From a virus (Duplodnaviria; Heunggongvirae; Uroviricota; Caudoviricetes): a DNA stretch of 64,000 nucleotides. Below the pieces are notes generated by a model that was given only the letters and a program-made list of their open reading frames with translations, searched no databases and was not told the origin of the DNA. Positions 5,348-63,299 of this stretch are shown here, piece after piece. The position numbers were made by a program, and so were the translations under genes. Positions within the stretch are counted from its first letter, which is position 1, and the number at the start of each line of letters is the position of its first letter. The stretch lies in the IMG/VR virus record IMGVR_UViG_3300042922_001018, one strand, 5' to 3'.

Positions 5348-5902
5348 TCAGGGAAGGTCGTCAGCGGGAGAGAAGAACTCCGGAGACGTGCGCGCCCGCT
5401 CATGCGCAGCGCGAACCTCGGGGTCAGCGAGAGCCAGCTCTTCCAGCGGCATCGCCACGCGCGGCTGAGAGGCCAGGCTGCTCGTGCGCATGAGATTCAG
5501 CCGCTCCCCGGAAGACTGAATCATCCGGCGCATGGCGTCCGAGAACTCTGGCGAGATGGAGTGGTAATGCCCCAGCATCGAGGTCAGCGCCGCACGCGAC
5601 TCGGGAGACATGTCCTCGTTCTCGGCTGCCTTCGCCTTCAACTCCTCGATAGTCAGCGGCTCTTCCGCGGGCAGCAGCGCCCGCAGCGTGTCAACGTCGA
5701 TAGAAACTTCACGGGTCTCGAACCCCTGTCCATCGTCGTACACCTCTTCTCGGAGGATACGACGCGCTTCCTCAACGGCGTCATCATGCGCTGACGATGA
5801 TGCGTCCAGAACGACTTCCGGAGACGACCCCGACTTCTCAGCGAACTTGCCGTCAGATGAACGCGGCGTCTCGAACGGGTCGAAGTAGCGAGGCCCAGGC
5901 AT
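5348..5902 (-). CDS. Tagged protein (N-terminal PRSSDGKFAEKSGSSPEVVL), unknown function
   Basis: 184-aa ORF with the shared N-terminal tag; coupled to the stop codon of the upstream gene. Confidence 0.85.
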   Translation of the reverse strand: MPGPRYFDPFETPRSSDGKFAEKSGSSPEVVLDASSSAHDDAVEEARRILREEVYDDGQGFETREVSIDVDTLRALLPAEEPLTIEELKAKAAENEDMSPESRAALTSMLGHYHSISPEFSDAMRRMIQSSGERLNLMRTSSLASQPRVAMPLEELALADPEVRAAHERARTSPEFFSPADDLP

Positions 5903-6180
5903 CAGTCGTCCCAGCGGTCATCGAAGCCGTGGGCGTCCGTTGTCCGCAGAGCGTCCGGGTCGGCATTCCCCACGATACCAGCGTAGTACGCGGCTTCGGC
6001 TTCAGTGTCATGGTTCGAGCAGTGGTAGTCCACGTCGCACTCGCACTCGCGGCCGGGAAGGAGAAAGCCGTTCTGCGGACCGGGAATGTCGGCGTCCAGT
6101 GCAACCTCGGGCGACGCGCCGGTCTTCTCGGCGAACTTGCCATCGGTTGCTCGCACGACTTCGTTTTCGTTGAAGCTCAT
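5902..6180 (-). CDS. Tagged small protein (MSFNENEVVRATDGKFAEKTGASPEVAL) with a CxC..HCxxH motif
   Basis: Start re-assigned to ATG 6180, 7 nt after CCGCCTACA. Confidence 0.85.
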   Translation of the reverse strand: MSFNENEVVRATDGKFAEKTGASPEVALDADIPGPQNGFLLPGRECECDVDYHCSNHDTEAEAAYYAGIVGNADPDALRTTDAHGFDDRWDD

Positions 6181-6187
6181 GAACGGA

Positions 6188-6196
6188 TGTAGGCGG
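6188..6196 (-). promoter_or_regulatory. CCGCCTACA-N7-ATG motif
   Basis: 7 nt upstream of a tagged ORF start. Confidence 0.8.
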
Positions 6197-7270
6197 TCAA
6201 GCGACCGCGCCATTCCATACGCGCTGGGCGAAAGCCATCTCGTCCCCGTCGCAGTCAGCCTGGTACGGGCCGCGCCACGTAGGGACGATGACCTTCGCCA
6301 TGCAGTCGGCCAGCAGTTCCAGCCCGGCATTCCCCGTGGTGAACAGCGCAGCCAGCGTTGGGGAGTCGATGAGCGCCCAGTAGTTCTTGAACTGAATCTG
6401 ATGAGCGTACTCGTGAGCCATCGGCCCCATCCAGTAGCCCTTCGAGTTGCCTGCGACACGATTCGCTACGATGACGCGACCATCCGGGTGAGCACACGCG
6501 ATAGCCGCTGCCATCTCACATACGATGTCCGCCCGCTCTAGATGCACCCATCCGCCGCCCACTGCGTCTAACGCAGAACGAGCGCCTGCCAGAACGGGGT
6601 CTGTGGCAGGCGCTGCGTTTGTATTCGCGGAAGGGTCAGGTGTCGGTGGAGGCTCCTCGTTCGGGTCTAGGCCTTCACGCTGCTCCCGTTCCAGCTCTTG
6701 CTGTTCTTGTTCAGCGCGAAGACGTTCCTGCTCCGCGTCGTATTCCTGGACTTCGGTCCGCAGAACGTTCATCGCGTCTCGTACTGTAGCCGTGGAGTTC
6801 GCCACGACGGCTGGATTCTCGCGTTCAGCCGCTACCCGGTCCTGCTCAGCAGAGACCGTTCGCTCGAACCCGGAGACATCCACCTTCGGCCGAGCCTCAT
6901 CGAGGAGAGCTGCGGCTTCGCCCAACGTGGTGAGGAAGCCTTCCCGGCTAGCGAGAAGCTCCTCCTGCGTCGCGATAGTCGCGTCTTTCTCCGCCACCGC
7001 CGACTCTAGCTCAGCGATACGCGCCTCAGCGTCCCCCGTCTGTTGACGGGCTTCCGCCGAAGTCGATTCCAGCTCAGCCACGCGCGCACTCGCCGAAGCG
7101 TACTGCGCGCCGAAGAAGATTGCAGCGATGATTGCGATGACTGCCACAGCGAGCATGGCAGCGAACATTGTCACCTTGACCCGAGAGAGTCGCTTCTCCT
7201 GGCGACGACGCTTCGCCCCGTCATGGTTGACGAGGATTTGCGCCGAGCTGTCGTCGAATAGTTCGCTCAT
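6197..7270 (-). CDS. Membrane-anchored coiled-coil protein with a C-terminal HExxH metallopeptidase-like domain
   Basis: N-terminal TM helix, long coiled coil, AHEYAH...ELLADC. Confidence 0.8.
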   Translation of the reverse strand: MSELFDDSSAQILVNHDGAKRRRQEKRLSRVKVTMFAAMLAVAVIAIIAAIFFGAQYASASARVAELESTSAEARQQTGDAEARIAELESAVAEKDATIATQEELLASREGFLTTLGEAAALLDEARPKVDVSGFERTVSAEQDRVAAERENPAVVANSTATVRDAMNVLRTEVQEYDAEQERLRAEQEQQELEREQREGLDPNEEPPPTPDPSANTNAAPATDPVLAGARSALDAVGGGWVHLERADIVCEMAAAIACAHPDGRVIVANRVAGNSKGYWMGPMAHEYAHQIQFKNYWALIDSPTLAALFTTGNAGLELLADCMAKVIVPTWRGPYQADCDGDEMAFAQRVWNGAVA

Positions 7271-10662: not shown

Positions 10663-11406
10663 TCAGCGGCGACGGCCGTGCGACTCGGAGTCGCGCTGGG
10701 CAATACGCGCGTCCCGCTCAGCCATGAAGCTGTCGAACTCGTCAGTCTGACGGAAGTCGCGCAGGTCTTCACGGAGCTGCTCCAGCTCGGCCAGGATACG
10801 GCTGTCGTACGGCTCGAAGCCTGACTGGTCGAAGCCTGCATCCGTGCAGAACGCGTATCGTGCGCGTACTGTTTCTACGGTGCCCTGGGCACCACCGATT
10901 GTGACGGGCGACTGACGAACCTTCGCCGCCTCGATGTCGCTTCCCGTGAGGTCAGCGTAGTACCACATCTGGAGCGCGCGAGCAACCTCGCGCGCCTCAT
11001 GACGGGGGATTTCCGGCTCGTAGGAAGCCGCCCACTGCTGTTCGGCACTCTGAGCGCCACTGGCGCGGGCGCTATCGACCTTGGTAATCCAGGCAGCAGG
11101 GTTCGCCTCCTGCTGGACCTCCCAGTCCGGGTTCATGTCGTAGAGCGCCTGTCCTGCCGCGTCCGCGCCGCTTTCGATGTAGCGGGTGCGTGCGATGGCG
11201 TAGGAGACCCGCATGGCGTCCAGCGCCGACGAGGGAACCGGGACACTCTTCCAGAACCGGATGACCTGCTCCGCGTTGGTGTAGCTGGCAGGCGGGTACT
11301 CGAAGCTTGCGTCGCCGAACTCGTTCAAGCCGATTTCTGGAGCAGAGCCTTCCTTCTCCGAGAACTGGCCGGTGGCGGTACGGGGTTGCATGTCACTCAT
11401 GGTCAT
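10663..11406 (-). CDS. Tagged protein (QPRTATGQFSEKEGSAPEIGL), unknown function
   Basis: Shared tag plus upstream motif. Confidence 0.85.
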   Translation of the reverse strand: MTMSDMQPRTATGQFSEKEGSAPEIGLNEFGDASFEYPPASYTNAEQVIRFWKSVPVPSSALDAMRVSYAIARTRYIESGADAAGQALYDMNPDWEVQQEANPAAWITKVDSARASGAQSAEQQWAASYEPEIPRHEAREVARALQMWYYADLTGSDIEAAKVRQSPVTIGGAQGTVETVRARYAFCTDAGFDQSGFEPYDSRILAELEQLREDLRDFRQTDEFDSFMAERDARIAQRDSESHGRRR

Positions 11407-11428: not shown

Positions 11429-14400
11429 TCAACGGAAGCGAGGCGGCGTCGAAGCGCTCGAACCCGGCTGCGGCGCCACGGACGGTGCCGCAGCCTTACC
11501 GTCCAGGATGAGCCGTCGTGTCGGTCCTGCGGTCGGCGTGGCCGGTCCTGCGTTGCCTCCAGGAATGACGCGACGCGTCTGCGGCGTGCCAACGCCACTC
11601 AGCTTCGTGTTCGGGTCAAAGAGAATCTGACGCGGTGCGACCTTCGCGAACGGAGTCGCCGAGTTCGCGGGGGCCGCAGGAAGCGGCGGGACCGGACGGC
11701 CAGCGACCGGAGCACCCGTTACCGGGGTACGGGGCTTCGGAGGACGCGAGGACGGCGCTGGGGCCGAACCGCCGCCACCGTCGCGACGGTCGCGACGCGT
11801 CTGGTTGTTCGCCTTCTGCTGCTCCGCAGCCTGCACAGCCTGCTCCGCCTGGTAGTTGCGGTATGCCGCCATACGGTCACGTCCCGTGACGTTCGACGCT
11901 GCGCGCTTCGTAACGCCCCACGCCGCGCCAGAGGCCTTCGCCGTGGCGTAGGTTGCTCCGACTGCGGTCGCACCGATGACCCACGAGGAGCCTGCGGTCA
12001 TGACGCCGCCACCGACGACAGCCGCGCCGACGGCCACCTTCTTGGCGTCCGACTTCAGACGGTCCTGACGCGCGATGCGGAAGCCGACCTCGTCGAACGT
12101 ACCGTTCTCGTCGGTGTACTGCGCCCGCAGGTCGTCGCCACGGATGTGCTGAATCGGGTGCGCCATCGTGTTCGCGGTCGCCTTGACACCGTTCCACAGC
12201 TCGGAGCGACGCTCGGCCACGTTCTGCTTCGTGCTGAGCCATGCGTTGCGCATACCGTCCGCGCCCGCGGCACGCAGGTTGCGAGGGCCGTTGGCGGTGC
12301 CACCAGCCGCGAGGCCACCGGCCACCCGAGCTTCGGACTTCTGCTGAGAGGCGTACACGCGAGCAGCCATGCGCTCCTGACGCGCTGCGGCGTGTGCCTG
12401 CTGGCGCTGGTCGCGACGAGCAGAACCGAGGAACCCGCCAGCCGCAGCGCCACCGGCAGCCGCAGCGGCCGTACCCAGACCCTTGCCTGCACCAGCGGCA
12501 CTCGCTGCACCAGCCGCAGCCGTACCAACGCCACCAGCGGCAGCGCCCGCGGCACCGAGACCACGTCCAGCCGCACCCTTGCCTCCGGTAGCCGGAGCGA
12601 GCATGCCGCGGCCCATCGAAGCGCGGCGCTCGGCCATCGTCGTGCCGAAGCGACCACCCGAGACCTTGCTGAGGGCGGAAGAGCCAGCGCCCTGGATAGC
12701 CTGACGGCCCGAACGTTCGATAGCGCTCCGAGCCATACGGCCACCGATGAAGCCGCCGACAGCGCCACCCGCCGCTCCAGAGGCGAGACCGTAAGCGATG
12801 CCGCCCTTCATGGACATCGGCGAAGGCATCTTCAGCACCTTCTTGAAAATCATGTTCAGCGAGATGACCGCTAGCACAGGAGCCGCAGCCGCCCATCCCA
12901 GGGCCATGACGGTACCAGCGCCGAAGGAGCCGTTACCGAACTGCACCAGGATGAACGTGGTGAGAACCACCACGGAAAGCAGGACAAGCGACAGCGCTGC
13001 GAACAGCATCGACCCGATGAACTGCTTAGCCGCCGCCCCGAGCTGCTCCAGACCGTTCGCACGGAAGAGCGCCAGAATCATGATGGGCAGGATGGTAATG
13101 GTGCCGAGGACCACGAAGAGCTTCGCGATGACAACGGCAAGCGCCATGCCGAAGAAAATGCACATCATGATGAACGCGCTTACTGCGTAAATCAGCAGCG
13201 GGAACATGTTGCCAGCCGCGTTAGCGCCGTTCAGCGATGCGAGGTAATCCTGGATGTTCGCCTGCGTCGAAGCGTTCGAGATGTTCTCGGTCTTCTTCTC
13301 GATGTCGCTCATGGTGTAGCCGACCGAGAGACCACCCTCGAACTCGTTGTCCGTAGGCTTCTTGTTCCACCACTTCTGGCACTCGTCGGCAGCAACCCCC
13401 GAGAGCTGGTCCCAGCCCGTACGCCACTGCCACGTGCCAGCGCCACGGTTCGACGGCTCACAACCGGCCCAGCCGACCATCGCGCGCTGAATCTGCTCAG
13501 CCGAGGAGGCGGTCCAGACGAGCTGTCCCGTGTCACGAGCGCTCGCCGGGATGCCCGACGCGGCCGTGAAGTCGGCAGCGTTACGGGCGGGAGTCTGAGT
13601 CCAGCCATCCAGGAGACGGCAGTAGGAGTATTCAGCGTACTGGCTGGTTCCGAGCTGAGCGCTCTTCCAGACGGGCAGACCCGTCGTACGCCACATCGAG
13701 TCCATCGTCTGCGTCAGAGCGATACGAGGGGTCGCCAGAGCCGTCGGAGACGCACTCTCGCGGAAGCGCTTGTCGTACAGGTTGACGGACTCCGCGCAGA
13801 GGTTGTTGTTCGCAGTTCCCGGCGCACGGGAGCGGTCCGCGTCAATCTGGCCGCTGGTCTGAGTCTGAACGGTAGCGAGAACTGCACCGACAGGGACGCT
13901 TGCGGCGGTCGAGAGGGAGTCGTTCGCGATGGTGACAATCCAGCCCGGCGAACCGACGCCAGGCTTGTACTGACCGCCCGCAGTGGTCGTGGAGTTCTGC
14001 GCTCCGACCACCATAACGACGAACACGGCCATCGTCGCGACCAGCCCGGCGATACGCCGGAAGAGCATAGCGCTGGCGCCTGGCCCGGCCTTACGCCAGG
14101 ATGCGAACATCCAGATGCCCACCACCACAATCAAGATGAGAGGGATGAGAGCTACGCCGGAAGATGGATTCAGCATCGACTGGCCGAGGGTGGCGCCGAT
14201 TTGGTCCATCTGTGCACCCAGCATGTTGATGGGTTCGAAGTTGATAGCGAGGTCAGCGACCCACTGCGAGACGGTCCAGAAGCCGTTGCCGACGGCCATG
14301 ATGTTGCCCTGGAGCATCGTGCGCGAAGCGGCGTTCATCAGGTCGCCGATGGCCCACATGTCGTACTTGTTCTGGAAGCTCGCCGTAGCGTCACGCCAGC

Positions 14401-14869
14401 GATTCAGCAGAAGGTTCTGCGAGATAGCCGCACGCTCTGCCTGGGCCTCAGGGGACATGTACGGGCCACACGAGCCATCACAGGCTCCGATGGGCGCCCG
14501 GCTGCCATCCGCTGAAGTGATACCGCTGGGCAGGGCGGTAGACGATGCCTGTTGCTGCGTCGGCGCTCCATCGACGAAAGCAACAGCACCCTGCCCAGCG
14601 GATTCCGGGGTCGCGCCGATGACGGCAGGCGCGACAGAGTTGGCGATGGAGTCAGAAGGCTCCACGGATGCGACAGCCACACCGGTAACGGCGACCGTCG
14701 CGAGCATCAGACCAGCGAGAGCTGCGATGCCGGTCTTTGCGAAGCGTCCACGCCACGTTGCGCGCTTCGATGAATCTTTGGCCTTGCGGGGCGTGCCCGT
14801 CAGGCGTGCGCGGGAAGCCTCAGCAGCCTCATGCATCGGAAGGAAGATGCCACCAGTCACTTTAGCCAT
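11429..14869 (-). CDS. Large polytopic membrane protein, possibly VirB6/TrbL-like
   Basis: 1146 aa with an extracellular domain, a cluster of ~5 TM helices and a Gly/Ala-rich basic tail; this architecture is typical of actinobacterial conjugation membrane proteins. Confidence 0.6.
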   Translation of the reverse strand: MAKVTGGIFLPMHEAAEASRARLTGTPRKAKDSSKRATWRGRFAKTGIAALAGLMLATVAVTGVAVASVEPSDSIANSVAPAVIGATPESAGQGAVAFVDGAPTQQQASSTALPSGITSADGSRAPIGACDGSCGPYMSPEAQAERAAISQNLLLNRWRDATASFQNKYDMWAIGDLMNAASRTMLQGNIMAVGNGFWTVSQWVADLAINFEPINMLGAQMDQIGATLGQSMLNPSSGVALIPLILIVVVGIWMFASWRKAGPGASAMLFRRIAGLVATMAVFVVMVVGAQNSTTTAGGQYKPGVGSPGWIVTIANDSLSTAASVPVGAVLATVQTQTSGQIDADRSRAPGTANNNLCAESVNLYDKRFRESASPTALATPRIALTQTMDSMWRTTGLPVWKSAQLGTSQYAEYSYCRLLDGWTQTPARNAADFTAASGIPASARDTGQLVWTASSAEQIQRAMVGWAGCEPSNRGAGTWQWRTGWDQLSGVAADECQKWWNKKPTDNEFEGGLSVGYTMSDIEKKTENISNASTQANIQDYLASLNGANAAGNMFPLLIYAVSAFIMMCIFFGMALAVVIAKLFVVLGTITILPIMILALFRANGLEQLGAAAKQFIGSMLFAALSLVLLSVVVLTTFILVQFGNGSFGAGTVMALGWAAAAPVLAVISLNMIFKKVLKMPSPMSMKGGIAYGLASGAAGGAVGGFIGGRMARSAIERSGRQAIQGAGSSALSKVSGGRFGTTMAERRASMGRGMLAPATGGKGAAGRGLGAAGAAAGGVGTAAAGAASAAGAGKGLGTAAAAAGGAAAGGFLGSARRDQRQQAHAAARQERMAARVYASQQKSEARVAGGLAAGGTANGPRNLRAAGADGMRNAWLSTKQNVAERRSELWNGVKATANTMAHPIQHIRGDDLRAQYTDENGTFDEVGFRIARQDRLKSDAKKVAVGAAVVGGGVMTAGSSWVIGATAVGATYATAKASGAAWGVTKRAASNVTGRDRMAAYRNYQAEQAVQAAEQQKANNQTRRDRRDGGGGSAPAPSSRPPKPRTPVTGAPVAGRPVPPLPAAPANSATPFAKVAPRQILFDPNTKLSGVGTPQTRRVIPGGNAGPATPTAGPTRRLILDGKAAAPSVAPQPGSSASTPPRFR

Positions 14870-15342
14870 CCTTCGGTATCAATCTGCTGCTTGCGACGCC
14901 GTGGCGTCGGGGTGGTCAGGACCGCGGTAGGTGCGACCTGTTCGTATTCGGGACGAAGCTCGATGTCCAGCGGACCGACCATAGCCAGATACGAAGGAGA
15001 GATGGTTTCGTTACATACGAATACTACACCATTCTGCGCCTTACGCTTGTCCCACATGGCCTCGTAACGACGAAGGCCGAGACCGTCGCGCGTACGACCC
15101 TCCACGAAGAAGAAGGTCAGGGCCACGACAATGAGGGGGATGGTCAGAAGAACTACTACGCCCGGCATCATGCCGAACGAGAAGGCGACCGGAGCAATAA
15201 GGCCCACAGGGATAAGAGAAGCCAGGAGAGCCATCACGGTCACGATGAACGACCGACGCGAGATTTCGAACGTCGCCAGGACCATTGTCCGGCCGGTGTT
15301 CTTCTTCGCGCCAGTCAGGCTGGTCATCGAGAACATGTACAT
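14857..15342 (-). CDS. Two-TM membrane protein, possibly VirB3/PrgI-like
   Basis: Two TM helices and a short cytoplasmic tail; overlaps the large membrane gene. Confidence 0.55.
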   Translation of the reverse strand: MYMFSMTSLTGAKKNTGRTMVLATFEISRRSFIVTVMALLASLIPVGLIAPVAFSFGMMPGVVVLLTIPLIVVALTFFFVEGRTRDGLGLRRYEAMWDKRKAQNGVVFVCNETISPSYLAMVGPLDIELRPEYEQVAPTAVLTTPTPRRRKQQIDTEGWLK

Positions 15343-15434
15343 GGTTGTTACCTATTATCCCATCTGGGCGAACGAGAAGTGGCCGAGCACCCGAAGGTGA
15401 CGGCCACTTCCCTGCCGTTGGAAGGCCGTCGGGG

Positions 15435-15728
15435 TTACCGTACGACCGAGTTGACGATGGTGATGAGGAAGCCGACGATGAACTGAAGAACACCGATGAT
15501 GGCCGGAATGACGAGCTGTGGACCAGCCAGTGCGCCCGCGAGGACGACGGCAATCCACGGGAAGCCCTGCATGCCAGCCCCGCCACCCTTGCGTCGCTGC
15601 CACAGCCATACGACCACGGAGATGACGAGGATGACCACACCCAGCACCGTCATGAACGTCAGAACGTTCGACGGTACGACTGCGATGAGACGGTTCCAGC
15701 CGTCCACCCAGTTGAGGCCACTACCCAT
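15435..15728 (-). CDS. Small hydrophobic two-TM protein, possibly pilin/VirB2-like
   Basis: 97 aa, two hydrophobic helices separated by a basic loop; GAAAGG SD. Confidence 0.55.
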   Translation of the reverse strand: MGSGLNWVDGWNRLIAVVPSNVLTFMTVLGVVILVISVVVWLWQRRKGGGAGMQGFPWIAVVLAGALAGPQLVIPAIIGVLQFIVGFLITIVNSVVR

Positions 15729-15774: not shown

Positions 15775-15783
15775 TGTAGGCGG
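15775..15783 (-). promoter_or_regulatory. CCGCCTACA motif heading the membrane-protein operon
   Basis: Exact intergenic copy ~46 nt upstream of ATG 15728. Confidence 0.65.
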
Positions 15784-24186: not shown

Positions 24187-25401
24187 TCAGCCCTTCACGC
24201 AGAGGCGTGTCTCCAGGAACGCTTCGACCTCGACCAGCTCAGACTGCGCGCGGATGACCGCGTGCACGTCCTTGTAGGCCTCCGGAAGCTCATCCAGGAT
24301 GCCCGCGTCACGGCGCGACTCGATGTTCCCGAGCTGGCGCTTGATTTCTGCCTGACCGTCATCGTCGCCCCGGAACTTCTCCTTCGCCTTGTTACGCGAC
24401 AGCACGCGACCGGCGCCGTGTGATGCGGAGAAGAACGACTTCGGGTTACCCAGCCCACGGACCACGTAAGAACCGGTCGCCATCGAGCCAGGGATGAGCG
24501 CAAGCTCCCCCTTCGTCGCACGGATAGCGCCCTTTCGGGTCACCAGCATGCTCTCGCCGTCGATGACCTCCTCAGACACGTAGTTGTGGTGGACGTTGAT
24601 GTCCGGCTCGAACGTGACCTTCTTCGAGTCGCCGTAGTGCTCCACGACGGCCCGCTTCACGAGCGCCATCATGATGGCACGTGAACGGAGAGCGTACTCC
24701 TGCGCCCACATGAGGTCGTGGCGGTATGCGTCCATCTGCGCCGTGCCCGAAAGGAACACCGCCATGTCTGCATCGGCGATGCCTTCGTTGTGCGAAAGCC
24801 CCTTCGCAACGGAGATGTGGTAGTCCGCCAGCATCTTCCCGATGTTGCGCGAGCCGGAGTGCAGCGTCAGCCAGACATTGCCGTCGGCATCGGTACAGAC
24901 CTCAATGAAGTGGTTGCCTCGGCCGAGCGTGCCAATCTGCGACTGCGCCTTGCTCTCGATACCACGGACGTACGGCGTGAGGTCGCGGTATGCGCCCCAG
25001 AACTTGTCCCAGCCGCGGTCCAGACCGTACCGACGCACGTTGACGGGCGTGTCGTGGCCCTCGTGGCCGAGAGGAATCGCGCCCTCGATGGCAGCGCGCA
25101 GCGCAGGAAGACGCTCCAGGTCTTCGACCTTCAGGGAAGTCTTCGTCGCCACGACGCCGCATCCGATGTCCACGCCGACCGCAGACGGCGCAACAGCCTG
25201 CTTCATCGCGATGACAGAGCCAACCGTGGCTCCCTTACCAAGGTGCACATCCGGCATGACGCGGACGCCGTGGACCCACGGCAACTCGGCGATGTTCCGG
25301 AGCTGCTGTAGAGCGGCCTGCTCCACATCCTGCTCATGTGCCCACATCAGGGTAGGCGCGGCGGCGCCGCGAAGCGTTACAGGGAACTCGTGAACAGTCA
25401 T
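24187..25401 (-). CDS. rtcB: RNA 3'-phosphate/5'-OH ligase RtcB
   Basis: MPDVHLGKG, GVDIGCG, GNHFIE, HSGSR, HHNY, SHGAGR, DELPEAYK. Confidence 0.97.
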   Translation of the reverse strand: MTVHEFPVTLRGAAAPTLMWAHEQDVEQAALQQLRNIAELPWVHGVRVMPDVHLGKGATVGSVIAMKQAVAPSAVGVDIGCGVVATKTSLKVEDLERLPALRAAIEGAIPLGHEGHDTPVNVRRYGLDRGWDKFWGAYRDLTPYVRGIESKAQSQIGTLGRGNHFIEVCTDADGNVWLTLHSGSRNIGKMLADYHISVAKGLSHNEGIADADMAVFLSGTAQMDAYRHDLMWAQEYALRSRAIMMALVKRAVVEHYGDSKKVTFEPDINVHHNYVSEEVIDGESMLVTRKGAIRATKGELALIPGSMATGSYVVRGLGNPKSFFSASHGAGRVLSRNKAKEKFRGDDDGQAEIKRQLGNIESRRDAGILDELPEAYKDVHAVIRAQSELVEVEAFLETRLCVKG

Positions 25402-25434
25402 GCGGCCCACGATAGCACAAAATCGTGGCGCTCG

Positions 25435-27771: not shown

Positions 27772-27780
27772 TGTAGGCGG
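27772..27780 (-). promoter_or_regulatory. CCGCCTACA-N7-ATG motif
   Basis: 7 nt upstream of ATG 27764. Confidence 0.8.
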
Positions 27781-38473: not shown

Positions 38474-38493
38474 GGTGTCCTTTCTCGTGCTCA

Positions 38494-40965: not shown

Positions 40966-40974
40966 TGTAGGCGG
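40966..40974 (-). promoter_or_regulatory. CCGCCTACA-N7-ATG motif
   Basis: 7 nt upstream of ATG 40958. Confidence 0.8.
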
Positions 40975-42079: not shown

Positions 42080-42735
42080 GGCACTTTTTGCTGCTACCCG
42101 ACGGCCGTCAACAACTCGCGATGAAGTGGGTGTTCTTAGTGACTCTCCTACAATCAGGAATCGCTGCGTCAGCGCGGCTGTGTCCGCGGGGAACACCCCC
42201 TACTAGGACTCCCCTTCTCTATTGCAATGAATAAAGCCCTTGTGCATTAACGAGGGATGCATACCGGGACGCAGTGACACACGGTCCCCTACTACTACTT
42301 AATTCTGTGGATAACTGAATTGGATAGTAGTAGTACAGGGGGTGCAGTTACCAGTCAGAATAGGGGTTCTCCCCGTTCCACAGCCTGTGGAGAAAGTTAT
42401 CCACAGGCTGTGGATAACTCGTGTCCCGGTTGAGTTAAGGTGGGACGCACCCTAACTAAAACCCCAGGTCAGAGGGCGAAAAAACGGGACGCAAGGTCCG
42501 AAAACACGTTTTACCGTCTGACCTGGGGTTTTCTTGAAACGGCCCTTTCCCTCCGATGCCCCGTGCGTCCCGAGGCCTGTTTCACCAGGGTTATCCACAG
42601 GCTGTGGATAACTTTTGGGCTGTGCACAACGAGGGAAGACACCTGTTCTGCGATGCTCCTTGCACGCAAAACGCCTTCGGGACGCACATTTTGCTTCATG
42701 TGCGTCCCGAAGGCGTGATTGTGGGGTTCCTACAA
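42080..42735. other. Putative replication origin (DnaA boxes, iteron-like GGGACGCA, AT-rich stretch)
   Basis: Perfect TTATCCACA boxes at 42306, 42397, 42409, 42591 and 42603, plus a 1-mismatch box at 42386; six GGGACGCA copies; longest non-coding gap outside the tRNA array. Confidence 0.8.
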
Positions 42736-44286: not shown

Positions 44287-44778
44287 GTGCAACCCTTCAT
44301 CCCGCCTGCTGTCACCCAGTTCGAACCCTTCACCGCTCTCGCGTGGGGTCTGATGCTGGCGGCGGTCCCGCTGTTCTTCCTGGTCGTGACCGCGCTGATG
44401 CGACGGAAGCTCGCTTTCGTCACCGCTCTCGGGTTCGTGGCAGTCACGTTCGCGGCAGGAGCTTTCCTGGTGTCGCCTCTCGACGCTGAGCGTCAGACCA
44501 CTGCGACGCGCAACAGCGTCGTCAGCGAGTGGCTGGACGAGAACTACCCTCAGTACGGTGGCGCCGAAGCTCTGCTTTCGCACTTCAACGACGGGTCAAC
44601 CTTCAAGGCGACTGCCGATGACGGCAAGCAGCGCACGATGCACTTCTCGTTCTCCCCTGAGTCCGGGTATCGTCTCATCGCGCTCACCGACAGCAAGCCC
44701 GCTGATGTGGTCGTGAAGGACGACCGTCTCGATGTTGCGGGTCAGCTCGCTGAGAAGGAAGCCGCAGCTCAGGGCTGA
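44287..44778 (+). CDS. Two-TM membrane protein
   Basis: Two hydrophobic helices; TAGGAT -10 element upstream. Confidence 0.75.
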   Translation: MQPFIPPAVTQFEPFTALAWGLMLAAVPLFFLVVTALMRRKLAFVTALGFVAVTFAAGAFLVSPLDAERQTTATRNSVVSEWLDENYPQYGGAEALLSHFNDGSTFKATADDGKQRTMHFSFSPESGYRLIALTDSKPADVVVKDDRLDVAGQLAEKEAAAQG

Positions 44779-45620
44779 CGGGCCATCCGAGCAACGGATT
44801 CCACCGACATGCGGTAGAGCTTCCCGTTGCTCGCGCGCATGATGATTTTCGTGGTGCCTGGCTCATGGATGCTCAGTCGTCCGTACTGGCGGTGGACGAA
44901 GATGTCGCCGTACACGACGTACAAGCCATGCCGCGGGTAGTTCTTCCGCGCTACCTTAGTCGGGTCCGCCTCACGTGGGCGTTCTGCCTTGATGAGGTCT
45001 GCGATGGCATTCAGGTCGCCGAGCGATTCTTCGCCGTCCTGGTCGGTGAGGATTGCGGTGCTACGTCGGATGTTGCCCACTGTGTACCGCTTCATCCCGT
45101 TGGCGAACTTGTCGCCTGAGTAAACGGGGGTGCCGTCCGTGGCGTATCCGACTTGACGCTTCATCCCGTTCTCGCGCTGGACTTGGCGAATAGCGGCTGT
45201 GGCTTCGACAGTGGTCTTGCCCTCGTATCCGAGACGCTTGGCCATCGCTTTCCAGCGTGGACCATGCTGCGCGCCGGGGGTGAGAGCGTGCGCAATCTCG
45301 TGGAGCATAGTCTGCCGGAACTCTTCACGGCTGCGGTGTTCGAGAACGGGTCCAGAGTAGGAGATGACCTTCTTCGCGTAGTGGCACTGGCCCTCGCGAG
45401 TCGTGGCACGGTCGAAGGCGAAGGTCCAGCCCTCCGCGGTAAGCCCGTAATGGTCGAGCATGTCCTCAGCAAGGGCAGCCGCTCGCGCGCGCGAGATAGG
45501 CGCGTCTGTCTTCAAACTTGCGTCGCCTTCGTAGCGCAGCGAGACTTCGGGTGTGCCGCCGGTCTTCTCGGAGAAGCGACCATCGTCATCCCGGCGCACA
45601 TCTGTTTCGGAGAAGGTCAT
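44769..45620 (-). CDS. Tagged SprT-like zinc metalloprotease
   Basis: Tag, then W.F.FD.A..R.G.C, LHEIAHAL...HGPRWK. Confidence 0.9.
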   Translation of the reverse strand: MTFSETDVRRDDDGRFSEKTGGTPEVSLRYEGDASLKTDAPISRARAAALAEDMLDHYGLTAEGWTFAFDRATTREGQCHYAKKVISYSGPVLEHRSREEFRQTMLHEIAHALTPGAQHGPRWKAMAKRLGYEGKTTVEATAAIRQVQRENGMKRQVGYATDGTPVYSGDKFANGMKRYTVGNIRRSTAILTDQDGEESLGDLNAIADLIKAERPREADPTKVARKNYPRHGLYVVYGDIFVHRQYGRLSIHEPGTTKIIMRASNGKLYRMSVESVARMARQP

Positions 45621-51327: not shown

Positions 51328-51903
51328 ATGACGAACTTCCGCATGCACAAGGCGCTCTCCTGGCTGAAAGACGCTGAAGTGCATCTGGTGACGGTTCACG
51401 GGTCACACCTGTATGGCCTGGCGCACGCAGACTCGGACAACGACATGTACACGGTCGCTGACCTCCCGATGTACCGCCCCGTTCAGTCGGTGGACGGTGA
51501 CGATGACAACACCATCGTCCCGCTCGATGCATTCTTCGACGCGTGCTGGCATGGACAGCCGAAAGCGCTCGAAGCGCTGTGGTCGCCGACGGCCGTGAAG
51601 AGTCCGCTGCTGGTAGAGTTCTCGCGTACGTTCCGTGTGGGTTCAGGGACGGCGCAGGACTCCTTCCGCCGCACGCGTGAGCATCTGTTCCGGGGTGAGA
51701 ACATCAACAAGATGAAGAGCCGTCGTCACGCTCTTCGGCTGGCGGTCCAGCTCCGGTCCATCATGGAGACCGGCCGTTTCAATCCGGTGCTGAACGACCA
51801 CACGAAGTTCTTGCTGACTCGTGTCGCAACTCGATACGACACACAGGAGACGTTCATCCCCGTGATGAACGCATGGTTCGACTGGGCTTCAGACGTTCAC
51901 TGA
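51328..51903 (+). CDS. Pol-beta superfamily nucleotidyltransferase (RlaP/NrdC.11-like)
   Basis: GSHLYGL...DSDND motif. Confidence 0.85.
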   Translation: MTNFRMHKALSWLKDAEVHLVTVHGSHLYGLAHADSDNDMYTVADLPMYRPVQSVDGDDDNTIVPLDAFFDACWHGQPKALEALWSPTAVKSPLLVEFSRTFRVGSGTAQDSFRRTREHLFRGENINKMKSRRHALRLAVQLRSIMETGRFNPVLNDHTKFLLTRVATRYDTQETFIPVMNAWFDWASDVH

Positions 51904-53147
51904 ACTCGGCTCGGCGCGTTCCCGCTGCCCGGCCAGGTGACGTTCTTCTCCAGCTCGCGAGCTTCCCTCGTCATGTACTCGCGCATTCCCCGTCGCTGCA
52001 TGACTGTGTGCACGATAGCTCGGTCCGCTTCGATGAGTTCCTTCATCTTCGCTATCCTGGTCGTCTTCTCTTCGAGCTTCTTCGCGTCGAAAGAGATACC
52101 GAGAGGGGTGTCGAGCGCGCTGGTCAACGCATGCGCGAGGGCTGGAGGAGTCGCCGGGTCGGCAAGAGCTTCGTTGGCTGCGGCAACTGCTTCGGTGGCT
52201 TGGACAGCCTTGACGTACCCTTCCCATTCACGGTGGGGGTTGCTGTACTTGTCGTAGTACCAGACGTTCGTGCTCGCCGCTGAAGTCTGGTCGAGGTCAC
52301 CGTTCAACACGGCGAGCTTCGCATCGAGAGCATCGAGATGCTCCTGGCTGGGAAGTCCGCGGGTCTGGAGTCCGGAGGGGAGCCGGTTGTTGTCCTTCAA
52401 CAAGTCCTCATGGCCGAGCTTCTTGGTCTGCTCGCGCAGCTCTGTGATGCGTTCGACTGTGACCGGGTTCCGAGGGAACACTACCCACGGAGCCGTGTGA
52501 CCTTCGGCGATAGATTTCTGAAGGTTCCGCGCCTGCTCCTGGTTCCGCGCCTGAGCCGAAGTCTCGAACAGCGCTTGGGCTGCGTCACGGTCCACCTTGA
52601 AGGCGAAGTTCGCGTAGGTACTGTCTAACGTGTTGTCTTCATCCACAATGAAAGCGGGATGCTTTTGTAGGTTCTCTACAACGGCGGCAAGACAATCGGA
52701 GTCGTGATTGTCCCCATCGTCACAGTAGCAGTACCGGCCACCGGCTCCATTGCGCGTGTGGACCATGGCAACGGGAGTACGGCCGGTCCAGCTATCTCCT
52801 GCACGCACGGTTGGCCACTTTTCAAGCGGCTTACCAAGGTCGGGCCAGGCTAGCCACGGACCGCTTTCGAGGCGACCGAAGTCCAACTTCAGCTCGTTGT
52901 TGAGATGGTCTTCCATAGTCGTGAGCTGACGCTCACCCAGTGACTCGAACTTCTCCGTCCACCGCCCGATGATGCTCTGCCCTTCATGGTCGAGCGGTAC
53001 GTCATCCACGGTGAGGCCGTATCGCTCCAGTGCAGCCACCAGTTCGGGGGCCGCGGTAGACACGAGTGTTACCTCGGCGGCGGCGCCGGTTCTCTCTGAG
53101 AACCTCCCGGCGGTGTCACGCAGGACAGCAGTCTCGTCGAAGGGCAT
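51897..53147 (-). CDS. Tagged protein (MPFDETAVLRDTAGRFSERTGAAAEVTL) with a H..CxC...H..C motif
   Basis: Start re-assigned to ATG 53147, 8 nt after CCGCCTACA. Confidence 0.85.
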   Translation of the reverse strand: MPFDETAVLRDTAGRFSERTGAAAEVTLVSTAAPELVAALERYGLTVDDVPLDHEGQSIIGRWTEKFESLGERQLTTMEDHLNNELKLDFGRLESGPWLAWPDLGKPLEKWPTVRAGDSWTGRTPVAMVHTRNGAGGRYCYCDDGDNHDSDCLAAVVENLQKHPAFIVDEDNTLDSTYANFAFKVDRDAAQALFETSAQARNQEQARNLQKSIAEGHTAPWVVFPRNPVTVERITELREQTKKLGHEDLLKDNNRLPSGLQTRGLPSQEHLDALDAKLAVLNGDLDQTSAASTNVWYYDKYSNPHREWEGYVKAVQATEAVAAANEALADPATPPALAHALTSALDTPLGISFDAKKLEEKTTRIAKMKELIEADRAIVHTVMQRRGMREYMTREARELEKNVTWPGSGNAPSRVQ

Positions 53148-53155: not shown

Positions 53156-53164
53156 TGTAGGCGG
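53156..53164 (-). promoter_or_regulatory. CCGCCTACA-N8-ATG motif
   Basis: 8 nt upstream of ATG 53147. Confidence 0.75.
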
Positions 53165-60189: not shown

Positions 60190-60906
60190 TCAGGAAGCCC
60201 AACGGGTTCCGCCTGTGTACCCGTGCTTGTTCTTCTCGGCACCCCACACGTAGTCCGCGTAGCGCTCCTCGCCTACCAGAACCGTGAGGACCGTCTTAGA
60301 CTCGTGTGCGAACGCGAGTGCGGCTTCCGCTTCGGCGTACGGGTGGGGACCAGGCTCCGGCGAGTAGCCGTACTCGCGTGCGAAGTCTTCCACGTCGTCC
60401 ATCGAGAACTCTTCGGCGACCTGAGCGGTCTCGGCGAGCGCGCCCATGGAGTCGCCGACAGAAGGCGTCTCAGTGACTCCGAGGCCGGTGCCGTAGTCGA
60501 TTTCCGCCTGGCGGAGGAAAGGACCGTCCTTCACAGAGAGGCGGCACTTGTAGTCGTAGGACGGAGTGCCGTCATCGAACAGCGTCGCGCCTTCGACACG
60601 TTCAGCGACACCGCGAATCTTGTCCTGCTGGGAGAGGAAGTTCGCACGCTCGAACACGTCATCGAACCCGGTCTCGTCCGCGTTGCTGGAAACACGGACG
60701 GTTCCGTTCGGAAACCTGGATGCGCGCAGTGCCGTCTTGCCGGGGCGCATCGGCCGCTTCTCGCCAATCTCCATGACAGGCTTCTGAGCCTCGCGAGAGT
60801 GCAGCGCATCGCTGAGCGATACCTCGGGCGCAGTGCCGTTCTTTTCGGAGAACCGTCCGCCCTGGTCGCGTACTACCTTCGCTTCTTCGAATGCAAGATT
60901 GGTCAT
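60190..60906 (-). CDS. Tagged protein (FEEAKVVRDQGGRFSEKNGTAPEVSL)
   Basis: ATG 60906 lies 7 nt after CCGCCTACA. Confidence 0.88.
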   Translation of the reverse strand: MTNLAFEEAKVVRDQGGRFSEKNGTAPEVSLSDALHSREAQKPVMEIGEKRPMRPGKTALRASRFPNGTVRVSSNADETGFDDVFERANFLSQQDKIRGVAERVEGATLFDDGTPSYDYKCRLSVKDGPFLRQAEIDYGTGLGVTETPSVGDSMGALAETAQVAEEFSMDDVEDFAREYGYSPEPGPHPYAEAEAALAFAHESKTVLTVLVGEERYADYVWGAEKNKHGYTGGTRWAS

Positions 60907-60913: not shown

Positions 60914-60922
60914 TGTAGGCGG
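60914..60922 (-). promoter_or_regulatory. CCGCCTACA-N7-ATG motif
   Basis: 7 nt upstream of ATG 60906. Confidence 0.8.
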
Positions 60923-61221: not shown

Positions 61222-61935
61222 TTACTCGCGTCCTTCCCCGAGGGTTGCGGTGCGTTCGTTGAGGATGGCGCGGCGTGCAGCGTGAGCGGCGACCTGCTGG
61301 GTGAACGCACGAAGCTGCGGAGAACGCGCTTCGGTCATTCCGTTCTCGTTGAACGTCTTGTCGAGGCTGGTGAGGACGGACTCGACGTTCTGCGAGAGCG
61401 CTGCGGCGTCTGCCTGAGAGAGTTCGACCTCCTCGCCGTCTACCCACCACTCGTCGTTCAGCGGGTCGGAGGAGTCGGCGATGGCCGGACCACCGAAGCG
61501 GGTGAGCTTGCCGTTGCGGTAGTACAGCCCGCTGCCGTCACGGGTGTCGATGATGCGCACGGCGGGACCGTTGCGACGGTTCAGCAGCCCCTTCTTGTAG
61601 AAGCGCTGCTCGCGTGTCGGCTTGCCGTCTTCGGTCGTGGCGTCGTCTTCGTCCATAGCGTCGTAGTCGCCTTCCGCTGCAAGCTCCTCGGGGGTCTTCT
61701 TGTCGTGGCTTTCGCCCCACGCCTGGACGGCTTCAGGACTCGGCTTCGGACCGCTGGTGGCGCCGCAGTTCGGGCACTGGCCGATGAAGACTTCGCCGCG
61801 TTCCTGCTCCAGTTCTTCGAGAGGCTGGTTCTCGTCGAAACCGAGTTCGGGAACCTCGCCTTCCTTGTCGGAGAACTTTCCAACGCCATCACGGCGGACC
61901 TTGGACTCGTCGAACTGGTTCTGTGAGAAGCTCAT
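61222..61935 (-). CDS. Tagged protein (FDESKVRRDGVGKFSDKEGEVPELGF) with CxxC and G.L.R..GPA repeats
   Basis: Tag; KGLLNRRNGPAV and NGKLTRFGGPAI repeats; TAGAAT-N7-ATG. Confidence 0.88.
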   Translation of the reverse strand: MSFSQNQFDESKVRRDGVGKFSDKEGEVPELGFDENQPLEELEQERGEVFIGQCPNCGATSGPKPSPEAVQAWGESHDKKTPEELAAEGDYDAMDEDDATTEDGKPTREQRFYKKGLLNRRNGPAVRIIDTRDGSGLYYRNGKLTRFGGPAIADSSDPLNDEWWVDGEEVELSQADAAALSQNVESVLTSLDKTFNENGMTEARSPQLRAFTQQVAAHAARRAILNERTATLGEGRE

Positions 61936-61977
61936 GATTGTGATTCTACCGTTCCTGTTTGGGCGTGGTGAGCGTGG

Positions 61978-62775
61978 TTACTTGTCGAGTTCGGCAGAGC
62001 GTTCCATCGCCTGCTCGAAGAGGATTCTGCGCTGAAACGGGTCCAGCGGGGTCTCATCGGTGAGAGCAGCGAACTGCTCCGTGATTTCGCTCCGGTTTCC
62101 GCTCTCGCGGAAGGCGTTGCTGTCAGGAAGGCGACTGTATTCTGCGCGCTCACCTTCAGCCCGTAGTTCACGGCTGCGGCGCGCTGCCATGATGGTCGCA
62201 GCCTTCAGGTAGAGCGCTCGCTGGTCAGGTTCGAGCGGCCCTGTCGCCTGCTCACGGATGAGGTTCTTGTACGTCACGTCAACGTCGCGTAGCTCCGACA
62301 CGCGTGCGAAACGTTCGCCGGTCTCGTCCATGTAGTCCGCGGCGCCGTAAGTCCCGTACATCATCCGCGTCTCGAAGTTCGCCGCCTCACGTCGGCGGCG
62401 CTCGGCGTAGTTCAGGTGCGGAAGCCCCAGCGCATCATCGGCGCCTTCGACAGCCATCTGGACAACCTGCGACTCAGGGTCCATGGGCTTGTGGTTCAAG
62501 AAGACGCGGGTGGGGCGTCCTTCACCGTCGATGTCTGCGCTGTACTTCACGGTGCCGTCGTCCTCGATGAACTCTACGAAGCTGTCTCGTCCGGCAGCGA
62601 CCGGCTCGTGGACCGTGTAGTTCGCAACGCCCCACGCCTGGGCGATACCGGCCGCAGCAATGTGTGCGGGCGTCTGTACTTCTGCGGTGTCGAGTGCGAC
62701 CTCCGGCTGCGCGCCGGTCTTCTCGGAGAACTTGCCGGAGGTGTCACGGCGCACCTGTGCTTCGTCGAATGACAT
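61978..62775 (-). CDS. Tagged protein (MSFDEAQVRRDTSGKFSEKTGAQPEVAL)
   Basis: Tag; starts 8 nt downstream of another tagged gene. Confidence 0.88.
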   Translation of the reverse strand: MSFDEAQVRRDTSGKFSEKTGAQPEVALDTAEVQTPAHIAAAGIAQAWGVANYTVHEPVAAGRDSFVEFIEDDGTVKYSADIDGEGRPTRVFLNHKPMDPESQVVQMAVEGADDALGLPHLNYAERRRREAANFETRMMYGTYGAADYMDETGERFARVSELRDVDVTYKNLIREQATGPLEPDQRALYLKAATIMAARRSRELRAEGERAEYSRLPDSNAFRESGNRSEITEQFAALTDETPLDPFQRRILFEQAMERSAELDK

Positions 62776-62783
62776 GGCGCGCC

Positions 62784-63299
62784 TCAGTCCTGGGTCTCGA
62801 ACGGGCGGTACGCGACTGCCCAGCCCTCTTCGTAGGTCTGACCCGTTTCCGGCTCGTCCTCGTCCGGGTATGAGGCGTAGACGGCTACGTAGTAGCCGGG
62901 GCGTTCCAGGATGTCTCCGGCCATGCGTCCGCCGAGCTGCTCGGAATCATGCATCCAGGGGCCGTCGTAGCCGTGCTGCCCGGTGTACCCGGAGAGCAGC
63001 TCCCACCCTTCGATGCTGCGGTGGTACGGGTCTACGTTGAAGCAGTCTGGGGCGTGCTTGTGCTGTACGCCGTCGTACACGTCGCCGTTGTCGCCGACTG
63101 CGATGACGTGGTCGAACTCCATCAGGTTGGACAGGTTGCCGTCTTCACGAAGGTCTGGACCGTCGTACTTCTTCCAGTCTGAGGAAACTGCGGGAAGCTC
63201 GACAGGAGTATCACCCAGGTTGACCTCTGGGGGCCAGCCGTTCTTCTCAGCGAACTTTCCGCCGTTGTCGCGTGCTACTGCCGTCTCGTCGAATGCCAT
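62784..63299 (-). CDS. Tagged acidic protein (MAFDETAVARDNGGKFAEKNGWPPEVNL)
   Basis: ATG 63299 lies 7 nt after CCGCCTACA. Confidence 0.88.
   Translation of the reverse strand: MAFDETAVARDNGGKFAEKNGWPPEVNLGDTPVELPAVSSDWKKYDGPDLREDGNLSNLMEFDHVIAVGDNGDVYDGVQHKHAPDCFNVDPYHRSIEGWELLSGYTGQHGYDGPWMHDSEQLGGRMAGDILERPGYYVAVYASYPDEDEPETGQTYEEGWAVAYRPFETQD

Follow-up and report, generated by a model that had tools for sequence, protein, structure and literature searches.

Introduction

Short peptides at the N-terminus of unrelated proteins that address them to a DNA-delivery vehicle are known from phages, i.e., the capsid-targeting sequence of T4 and the inner-body propeptides of phiKZ. The signals of type IV secretion systems (T4SS) are of other kinds, namely C-terminal charged tails, BID and XVIPCD domains, and the TS domains of relaxases, which are either poorly conserved or larger folded domains. 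A repertoire of ArdC-N plus zincin, SprT and CCA-type proteins has been assigned to proteins that are transferred with invading DNA (Iyer et al., 2017; PMC5512222). Here we describe a stretch of 64,000 nucleotides from IMG/VR record IMGVR_UViG_3300042922_001018, hereafter called the window, in which 17 proteins carry copies of one conserved peptide of about 28 residues, hereafter called the tag. The window represents 64 kb of an element record of about 450 kb, and the gene content of the element itself was read in those 64 kb.

Results

A peptide tag on 17 proteins

Alignment of the tags gave the consensus M-[TS]-F-[DNS]-E-x-x-[HV]-[PN]-R-x-x-x-G-[KRQ]-F-[ASG]-E-K-x-G-x-x-P-E-[VIL]-x-L. The first-pass annotation of the window had reported 16 open reading frames (ORFs) opening with this motif and a 17th (35420-36241) with a copy at its C-terminus, and had proposed a profile search as a check. 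All 16 listed minus-strand starts indeed translate into the motif, and the C-terminal copy is present, consisting of the second half of the tag. A hidden Markov model (HMM) of the 29-column core, scanned over every stop-to-stop frame in all six frames, found exactly these 17 ORFs in the whole window, with full-sequence E-values between 4e-18 and 1.3e-11, while the next-best match had an E-value of 1.8. The copy is N-terminal in 16 proteins and C-terminal in one. In the tags of the genes starting at 11406 and 44265, the F-D-E part is missing and the sequence opens near [QH]PR, and the C-terminal copy reads G.F..K.G..PEV.L only. The gene at 44265 starts either with the GTG at 44265 or with an ATG 15 nt downstream (44250, the JGI call). 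The tagged genes are as follows, with the position and E-value of the tag and the upstream sequence box discussed below.

5348-5902, minus: 184 aa, acidic, body of unknown function; tag from residue 6, nt 5887-5804, E 2.4e-15; no box, start overlapping the stop of the upstream tagged gene
5902-6180, minus: 92 aa with Cys/His residues; tag nt 6180-6094, E 5.4e-17; box CCGCCTACA at 6188-6196, 7 nt before the ATG
10663-11406, minus: 247 aa, short tag M..QPR...GQFSEK.G..PE; tag nt 11406-11323, E 2.6e-12; box CTGCCTACA, spacing 7 nt
26231-26461, minus: 76 aa, degenerate tag (R...GRFTAQTGSAPEV); tag nt 26461-26387, E 1.3e-11; no box
26745-27764, minus: 339 aa, very acidic (net charge -40); tag nt 27764-27681, E 7e-16; box at 27772-27780, spacing 7 nt
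27928-28482, minus: 184 aa, member of a paralog pair; tag nt 28482-28396, E 4e-18; box at 28490-28498
28505-29044, minus: 179 aa, paralog of 27928-28482; tag nt 29044-28961, E 5.6e-18; box at 29052-29060
29734-30465, minus: 243 aa; tag nt 30459-30376, E 4.7e-16; box CTGCCTACA, spacing 7 nt
35420-36241, minus: 273 aa, C-terminal half-tag at nt 35521-35438, domain E 5e-11; box at 36249-36257, 7 nt before the ATG at 36241
39885-40958, minus: 357 aa, ArdC-like, with the tag, an ArdC-N single-stranded-DNA-binding domain and a zincin domain (MPTase-PolyVal / M78); tag nt 40958-40872, E 2e-17; box at 40966-40974
42730-44265, minus: 506-511 aa, CCA-adding/poly(A) polymerase-family enzyme with HD domain; tag nt 44259-44173, E 7e-14; partial box only (TCCTACA, 7 nt before the GTG at 44265)
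44769-45620, minus: 283 aa, SprT-like zinc protease; tag nt 45620-45537, E 3e-17; box CTGCCTACA, spacing 7 nt
51897-53147, minus: 416 aa, function unknown; tag nt 53147-53064, E 7.5e-15; box at 53156-53164, spacing 8 nt
60190-60906, minus: 238 aa; tag nt 60894-60811, E 7.7e-15; box at 60914-60922
61222-61935, minus: 237 aa, weak DUF7848-like Cys motif; tag nt 61920-61834, E 6.5e-13; no box, follows the upstream tagged gene
61978-62775, minus: 265 aa; tag nt 62775-62689, E 3.5e-17; no box, follows the upstream tagged gene
62784-63299, minus: 171 aa; tag nt 63299-63216, E 1e-16; box at 63307-63315

Behind the tag, the proteins have little in common. BLASTP without the tags linked only 27928-28482 and 28505-29044 (45% identity, E 4e-32), in line with the earlier claim of unrelated bodies with one paralog pair. 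The earlier domain calls also held, since family matches were obtained for the CCA enzyme, the ArdC-like protein with its zincin domain and the SprT protease. The other tagged bodies had no match in Pfam, PHROGs or NCBIfam. In the ArdC-like protein, the ArdC-N domain (29.6 bits against a cut-off of 22.6) is followed by a zincin metallopeptidase (MPTase-PolyVal 30.3 bits, cut-off 27.5; Peptidase_M78 33.4 bits), the arrangement of ArdC-type anti-restriction proteins, and the protein matches PHROG anti-restriction family phrog_7245 (E 5e-17). As had been claimed, transmembrane helices are absent: none of the 17 proteins contains a 19-residue window with a mean Kyte-Doolittle hydropathy of 1.6 or more. 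Their net charge is negative in 16 cases. The tag is polar and charged, and the hydrophobic core of a Sec or Tat signal is missing from all tagged proteins.

The tag is conserved as a peptide. At the invariant or nearly invariant residues R, G, G, P and E, the tagged genes use 4, 4, 4, 3 and 2 different codons, respectively, and this variation of synonymous codons at conserved residues indicates that selection acts on the peptide and not on the nucleotides. We also collected 208 instances of the tag, drawn from the protein library, related contigs and the window itself. In 79% of these, the start methionine lies exactly 9 residues before the invariant arginine, and the un-anchored positions are conserved as well (F at -7, 91%; K, 98%; G, 99%; P, 83%; E, 89%; L, 94%). 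The residues [ASG]-P-E at tag positions 13-15 are 69-89% conserved. In related metagenome contigs, orthologs keep the tag at 62-90% body identity. Examples are 10663-11406 (L097, 65% identical), 26745-27764 (L111, L074 and L032, 73-74%) and 42730-44265 (L079, L106 and L086, with the tag full or shortened), and the L111 ortholog of 35420-36241 retains the C-terminal copy.

To see what structure the tag adopts, AlphaFold2 was run on one tagged family, that of 27928-28482, with an alignment of seven sequences. Residues 1-29 were unstructured (pLDDT about 40, all below 50), whereas the remaining 155 residues had pLDDT values of 80-96. No fold in the PDB matched this body at an E-value of 0.001 or better. 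The predicted disorder, the fixed distance between Met and Arg and the conservation of the un-anchored residues suggest that the tag behaves as a short linear motif on a free N-terminus rather than as a folded domain. Structural look-alikes of the tag in the Atlas, which were weak and short matches, came from portal-effector fusions and polyvalent-associated domains (PBECR1, LPD3, NUDIX-portal).

We found no record of the tag in the databases and literature examined. Scans of the tagged proteins and of the polyvalent segments described below gave no family covering the tag in Pfam, NCBIfam or PHROGs, and a sequence-profile comparison of the tag and the polyvalent motif with the PDB gave no meaningful match. 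Literature searches with spellings of the motif returned no paper describing it, and it is not mentioned in Iyer et al. (2017; PMC5512222), Jamet et al. (2017; PMC5576092) or a review of jumbo phages. The full two-part pattern had no match in 2.9 million IMG/VR contigs. Among the 80 single matches obtained by a pattern scan of GTDB species genomes, only two resemble real copies of the motif, and arrays were absent.

The first half of the tag in phage polyvalent proteins

A search of 1.84 billion representative proteins with the tag profile returned 464 hits at an E-value of 0.001 or better. Two classes were distinguished among the best 150 of these 464 hits. The first class comprises 98 proteins of 65-433 aa that have the complete two-part tag at residues 1-3; Pfam assigned no family to 92 of these 98. 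The second class comprises 52 giant proteins, 0.5-4.7 thousand residues long, in which only the first half occurs, as 3-9 internal copies with the consensus [WF]-D-E-S-x-H-P-R-D-x-x-G-[RKQ]-F-x-x-K. When the 17 tags were aligned with 70 internal copies using hhalign, the two profiles matched over the first 25 columns with a probability of 98.1% (E 9.8e-14). In both classes, a minor variant has V-x-R instead of H-P-R.

These long proteins fit the definition of polyvalent proteins given by Iyer et al. (2017; PMC5512222), and their domains include ART-PolyVal, InPase, MuF, Zeta-toxin, C39-peptidase, FtsK and sigma-factor domains. Each of the six genomic contexts that were examined has the gene after or near portal, MuF, terminase or capsid genes, i.e., in the phage head-assembly module, and nearby head-module genes likewise bear the motif. 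The strict DNA pattern WDE..HPRD..G.F occurs in at least 120 IMG/VR stretches, for which we estimate a chance expectation far below 1, and the first half is kept across Acidobacteria-, gut- and actinobacteria-associated phages. A tblastn search of phages with such a short peptide is nearly blind, and its sole useful lead was Gordonia phage Ribeye (L009, NC_053241.1). Its gp18 (locus nt 9010) holds one copy, FDEAKHKRDVRGKFARK, about 870 residues into a protein of 1,124 aa; gp18 is annotated as a head maturation protease in one record and as an RNA ligase in another. Two polyvalent genes, in L007 (10001-16078, 2,025 aa) and L129 (10001-17602, 2,533 aa), include an FtsK/SpoIIIE ATPase domain among their motif-delimited modules and follow terminase, portal, GNAT and InPase-MuF genes.

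The tag has the residues and spacing of the polyvalent module leader ([WF]DE..HPR...G[KRQ]F..K) and also its place at the start of a module, because the tag is N-terminal and the polyvalent motif precedes domains such as ART-PolyVal. The window tags head single-module genes in a plasmid-like element and are not part of a multi-module protein, and no portal, MuF or terminase gene was seen in the window or among the families listed for its relatives. By its profile similarity, the tag is a stand-alone form of the polyvalent module leader, and the second half, G..PE[VIL].L, appears as an extension specific to the plasmid lineage. This second half probably has a binding role of its own, since it is the only part retained at the C-terminus of 35420-36241 and in its L111 ortholog. 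The N-terminus M-[TS]-F-[DN]-E of the stand-alone proteins would mimic the putative product of a cut just before the aromatic residue.

A promoter-like box shared by most tagged genes

The sequence CCGCCTACA occurs 12 times in the window where 0.4 copies are expected, and only on the coding strand (5265-63315, minus). In 12 tagged genes, including the gene with the C-terminal tag, C[CT]GCCTACA lies 7 nt (once 8 nt) upstream of the start codon. This spacing leaves no space for a ribosome-binding site. The transcripts starting from the box are thus probably leaderless, with transcript starts deduced from the spacing, and a dedicated sigma factor possibly recognizes the box. Because most tagged genes share the box, the tag appears to mark a single regulon under a private promoter box. 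Four genes without the box (starts 5902, 26461, 61935 and 62775) still carry the tag; the box-less genes lie close behind another tagged gene and are probably co-transcribed with it. The related contigs (L010-L127) retain the box, which is read in-frame as RLH.GM or RLQ..M before the start codon.

Three boxes, all on the minus strand, do not head a tagged gene. The box at 38663-38671 falls within gene 38494-39177, at its 3' end, and nrdE lies about 220 nt downstream of the box. The one at 15775-15783 precedes an untagged membrane operon, with a 7-codon ORF 6 nt further on and the first gene of the operon, encoding 97 aa, after about 55 nt. No start codon follows the box at 5265-5273.

Relatives of the element and their transfer genes

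At the nucleotide level, a megablast search of 12.6 kb of the window against phage and plasmid collections matched only nrdE, and a search of IMG/VR for related loci with the ArdC-like protein found nothing. The ArdC-like protein is encoded on a JGI metagenome contig of 450,372 bp and on two more records of similar size. Scanning the JGI metagenomes with the tag pattern gave 37 loci with 125 real tags, which occur in arrays. Neighbors in these relatives include DnaE (a PHROG DNA-polymerase family), M23 wall hydrolases, a sortase, RtcB, ThyX and methylases. AAA_10 (VirB4-type) ATPases of about 865 aa lie directly upstream of the tag arrays in L073 and L107, and L088 encodes a soluble FtsK-like ATPase of 561 aa. 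A complex prediction with the tag alignment and this FtsK-like ATPase (L088:671-2356) gave a score of 0.01, which weighs neither for binding nor against it.

Relatives in cultured bacteria were found by tblastn of the ArdC-like protein against PLSDB, which led to Curtobacterium megaplasmids; the best hits align from residue 14, inside the tag. Three circular plasmids from cultured Curtobacterium were compared.

D40, NZ_CP126274.1, from Curtobacterium sp. MCBD17_040: 607,661 bp
pS16, NZ_CP126255.1, from strain MCSS17_016: 545,759 bp
pCPAA3, CP018784.1, from C. pusillum AA3: 567,298 bp

The products shared by D40 and the window have the following identities.

SNF2 helicase: 42%
RtcB: 64%
NrdE, NrdF and NrdI: 70, 69 and 48%
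ArdC-like protein: 38%
CCA enzyme: 39%
PD-(D/E)XK nuclease: 33%
SprT-like protein: 46%

The tags of the Curtobacterium megaplasmids are N-terminal and share with the window the core G.F...[DE][VI].L and a related box. All tags of D40 are N-terminal, with 7 of the canonical form (TF.E.DHPR...G.F.EK) and about 30 diverged ones of the form M..hhR+.D.G.P.N.G.F..H.R...[DE][VI]TL. Thus D40 has about 37 tags, most of them diverged, and it differs from the window in GC content (67% versus 61%). Its box variant, GCCGC[GA]CACA-N7, precedes most of these tags, and the tagged region of the plasmid includes a gene of the sigma-70 family. Both D40 tag classes stand behind the same box, at 79-104, 336-411, 440-458, 503-504 and 569-571 kb. 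The tags of the Curtobacterium plasmids are unannotated, and we found no paper describing them. These plasmids also carry ordinary accessory genes (sugar transport, flagellar), and in D40 the flagellar genes fliW, flgL, flgK and flgN, at 572-575 kb, lie beside one tagged cluster.

The window has no VirB4-type ATPase or coupling-protein gene. In the relatives such genes are present: D40 encodes orthologs of the VirB4-like and soluble FtsK-like ATPases seen in the metagenomic contigs, AAA_10 scores above the Pfam cut-off in all three Curtobacterium megaplasmids, and the VirD4-type family T4SS-DNA_transf is present in two of the three. In D40, PGAP annotates a coupling protein, and a 1,737-aa FtsK protein flanks the main tag array. 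On the other side, family scans of the window gave no capsid, portal or terminase gene, and none was among the top 25 families listed for the tag-bearing relatives (about 260 kb, 140 proteins). No match to Phage_capsid, TerL_ATPase, Terminase_6C or Phage_portal was obtained in the three complete Curtobacterium megaplasmids; no prohead-protease family was included in this search. On its gene content, the family is best regarded as giant plasmids that combine phage-like genes for replication and nucleotide metabolism with transfer genes of the conjugation type.

One candidate for a channel component of the transfer apparatus is encoded in the window itself.

11429-15728, minus: untagged membrane operon encoding proteins of 97, 161 and 1146 aa with 3, 2 and 7 hydrophobic segments, respectively; own CCGCCTACA box at 15775-15783

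The tagged gene 10663-11406 adjoins this operon on the downstream side, and the gene order of the operon is conserved in D40 (540.4-544.5 kb). The first-pass annotation had called the region from 11.4 to 15.7 kb a membrane or conjugation apparatus. Its polytopic membrane proteins and the conservation of the operon in D40 agree in part with this assignment, but no Pfam, PHROG or NCBIfam model matches the operon.

Discussion

The tag as a possible delivery address

We propose that the tag is a delivery address for proteins that accompany DNA, with a conjugation-type apparatus as a more likely vehicle than a virion, and we consider the chances of this proposal evenly balanced. The tag would be a disordered, portable recognition peptide that marks soluble proteins as cargo. 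Tagged cargo would be handed over to the DNA-transfer machinery of the element and delivered together with the DNA into a new host cell. Whereas phages would string the modules into polyproteins, each with its own leader, the plasmids would encode them one by one, every unbundled gene beginning with the leader and a lineage-specific extension and most being driven by one box. The route would be a conjugation-type apparatus with the VirB4-like ATPase, the coupling protein, the FtsK-like ATPases and the membrane operon. Binding to a receptor, the identity of this receptor, the protein transfer and a later removal of the tag are steps that we infer. A more specific form of the proposal is that the tag is an N-terminal export signal, shared by descent with phage polyvalent cargo, of an unrecognized protein-delivery pathway of giant conjugative plasmids in actinobacteria, the regulon then comprising diverse effectors that are injected with the DNA to take over or disarm recipients. 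This form is tentative, and we think it is probably not correct in full.

Several observations argue for an address. The same disordered peptide is found on several hundred unrelated soluble proteins and is under strong selection, and its homolog heads the modules of phage proteins that are encoded beside the portal. The tagged genes have a dedicated promoter, and the family has transfer genes. Furthermore, the targets of the recognizable cargo (ArdC, SprT, zincins, a tRNA-repair enzyme) are incoming DNA or host defenses. The first-pass annotation had proposed a portable sorting signal that loads cargo into virions or routes it through a conjugation apparatus, and had suggested to compare the co-occurrence of the tag with capsid and with VirB4/VirD4 genes. 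The sorting signal gained from the homology to polyvalent leaders and from the disordered N-terminal peptide on folded bodies, and the virion route found no support in this element family. The comparison favored the conjugation side (AAA_10 in 3/3 plasmids, T4SS-DNA_transf in 2/3, FtsK-like proteins present), the capsid-side families tested being found in 0/3.

Other points weigh against an address. PLSDB types all three Curtobacterium plasmids as non-mobilizable. A receptor, transfer, packaging and cleavage of the motif proteins are all putative, for the phages as well as for the plasmids. T4SS signals are C-terminal or internal, and we know of no precedent for an N-terminal route. The number of distinct cargo species would be unusually large for one element, and virion genes may be located in the element beyond the 64 kb that were read. 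To our knowledge, phage and plasmid machines share no receptor, and the shared motif would be accounted for more simply by a function independent of the machine, such as processing or action after entry.

One such function is processing. A dedicated protease could cut polyvalent proteins at the motif, and in the stand-alone proteins the tag would be a removable N-terminal propeptide with A-P-E as a possible scissile site. This fits the occurrence of the motif at every module boundary of the polyvalent proteins, the weak, short structural matches to portal-effector fusions and polyvalent-associated domains, the conservation of [ASG]-P-E, and the presence of three zincin-type proteins in the window (39885-40958, 44769-45620 and the untagged DUF6782-like protein 34510-35412). 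On the other hand, a single-domain protein would gain nothing from a pure cleavage site at its very N-terminus, and a disordered peptide of 28 residues is unlikely to keep unrelated folds inactive. The C-terminal half-copy in 35420-36241 resembles a binding element instead, and the cultured relatives lack the four virion families tested, in a search that covered no prohead-protease family. We regard processing as unlikely, and as the foremost of the alternatives. By analogy with the capsid-targeting sequence of T4, it can coexist with an address function. Docking without a machine, for example to a host hub, the incoming DNA-protein complex or a chaperone, or a degron that times an early-gene set, is also unlikely, and we rank it behind processing. 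It would account for the same motif in phages and T4SS-type plasmids, for which no shared receptor is known, and for one regulon with a private promoter, which fits a timed program; the tag is also disordered and terminal, as such motifs are. Against it, the phage motif genes lie in the head module beside the portal in 6/6 contexts, which points to incorporation into the virion, and the conservation of the first half across phage groups demands a nearly universal host partner, of which none is known. An N-end-rule degron exposed by a cut before W/F was rejected, since acidic residues follow the aromatic residue and the stand-alone proteins start with Met-Thr or Met-Ser.

If the element were a huge phage, the tag could be a capsid-targeting sequence that loads proteins into the virion and is cut by a prohead protease. 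The known contexts of the homologous motif are all phage head modules, and the gene set is phage-like, with the ribonucleotide reductase, RtcB, the CCA enzyme and, in the relatives, DnaE. A-P-E would also suit putative cleavage of the phiKZ type, for which the first-pass annotation gives a cut after S/A/G-X-E. But the window scans and the families listed for the relatives contain no capsid, portal or terminase, and none of the four virion families was found in the three complete cultured relatives. The full tag pattern has no match in the 2.9 million IMG/VR contigs, and the relatives are resident circular plasmids of 546-608 kb in cultured bacteria. Virion loading is quite improbable. The poorest chance by far is that of a feature acting at the RNA level, in which the conserved 5' coding sequence would aid initiation on leaderless mRNA. 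Most tagged genes do seem leaderless and start 7-8 nt after the box, so that this stretch is the 5' end of the mRNA. The synonymous codons vary at conserved residues, however, the peptide is internal in the giant proteins and C-terminal once, and the genes at 5902, 26461, 61935 and 62775 have the tag but no box. We consider this explanation hardly credible. A flagellar export signal was considered as well, because flagellar genes adjoin some tags in D40, and was rejected since the window and the metagenomic relatives show no flagellar genes. Moreover, flagellar export signals are not conserved in sequence.

Other genes in the window

Several untagged genes lie among or near the tagged ones.

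24187-25410, minus: RtcB ligase (Pfam E 2e-107)
31117-32067, minus: NrdF
32096-33571 and 33597-34406, minus: adjacent membrane proteins, each starting with a DUF2510 domain
34510-35412, plus: DUF6782-like putative metallopeptidase (E 4e-5, below the Pfam cut-off)
36311-38497, minus: NrdE
39177-39578, minus: NrdI

RtcB forms a tRNA-repair pair with the tagged CCA/HD enzyme (42730-44265, minus), and both are conserved in the relatives and in D40. This suggests that the pair counters host anticodon nucleases. The genes of the class Ib ribonucleotide reductase (NrdF, NrdE, NrdI) are interleaved with tagged genes, and this set gave the only nucleotide-level match of the window in public phages and plasmids, with 70-78% identity. 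The putative metallopeptidase gene, one of few on the plus strand, is convergent with the gene carrying the C-terminal tag and may encode a processing enzyme.

Significance

An N-terminal export signal for a conjugation-type machine, if true, would be categorically new. If the tag is a delivery address, it would make it possible for the first time to recognize, from sequence, the proteins that accompany the DNA of mobile elements, and hundreds of "hypothetical" genes, here and in thousands of phages, would become a catalog of candidate take-over or anti-defense effectors. One peptide would then link the polyvalent cargo of phages with plasmid-borne effectors, and it might be used as a portable tag for moving chosen proteins among actinobacterial cells. 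Because cultured Curtobacterium strains harbor megaplasmids with related, though diverged, tags and a related box, bench tests of the hypothesis are possible, and work on it is not confined to metagenomes. Even if the role turns out to be processing or timing, the tag is an undescribed motif of 20-28 residues that is strongly selected, present on several hundred unrelated proteins and linked to a private promoter.

Comparison with known systems

The leaders of T4 and phiKZ resemble the tag in being short N-terminal addresses on unrelated proteins, and cleavage after Glu would be possible in the tag as well. The tag has no sequence similarity to these leaders, however; it exceeds them in length and, by a wide margin, in conservation, and an order of magnitude more genes carry it. 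Its cultured relatives have none of the four virion families tested, in a search that did not extend to prohead-protease genes. With T4SS substrates the tag shares the presence of coupling-protein and VirB4 genes in its element family, and a dependence on a T4SS is putative. It differs from T4SS signals in being a highly conserved linear motif of 28 residues that is N-terminal in 16 of 17 proteins and not C-terminal or internal. The tag may therefore work like a capsid-targeting sequence or a secretion signal, but it is not a member of either family, since it has no sequence likeness to them, is at the wrong end for a T4SS signal, has no hydrophobic core, and belongs to elements whose cultured relatives lack the virion families tested.

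The closest likeness is to the polyvalent proteins (Iyer et al., 2017; PMC5512222) and the polymorphic toxins fused to MuF (Jamet et al., 2017; PMC5576092). The same first 20 residues or so precede each module, and the cargo overlaps, with ArdC-N, zincin/MPTase and SprT domains in the window and enzymes of the ART/GNAT type in its relatives. The proposed role is also common, i.e., that of effectors entering with invading DNA. Here, in contrast, the modules are separate genes, 17 in the window, each with its own leader and usually its own promoter, the leader has the additional conserved half G..PE[VIL].L, and the carrier is a giant T4SS-type plasmid and not a phage head module. What is new is the unbundled, promoter-linked, two-part form of the motif in giant T4SS-type plasmids, together with the cultured hosts that allow it to be tested.

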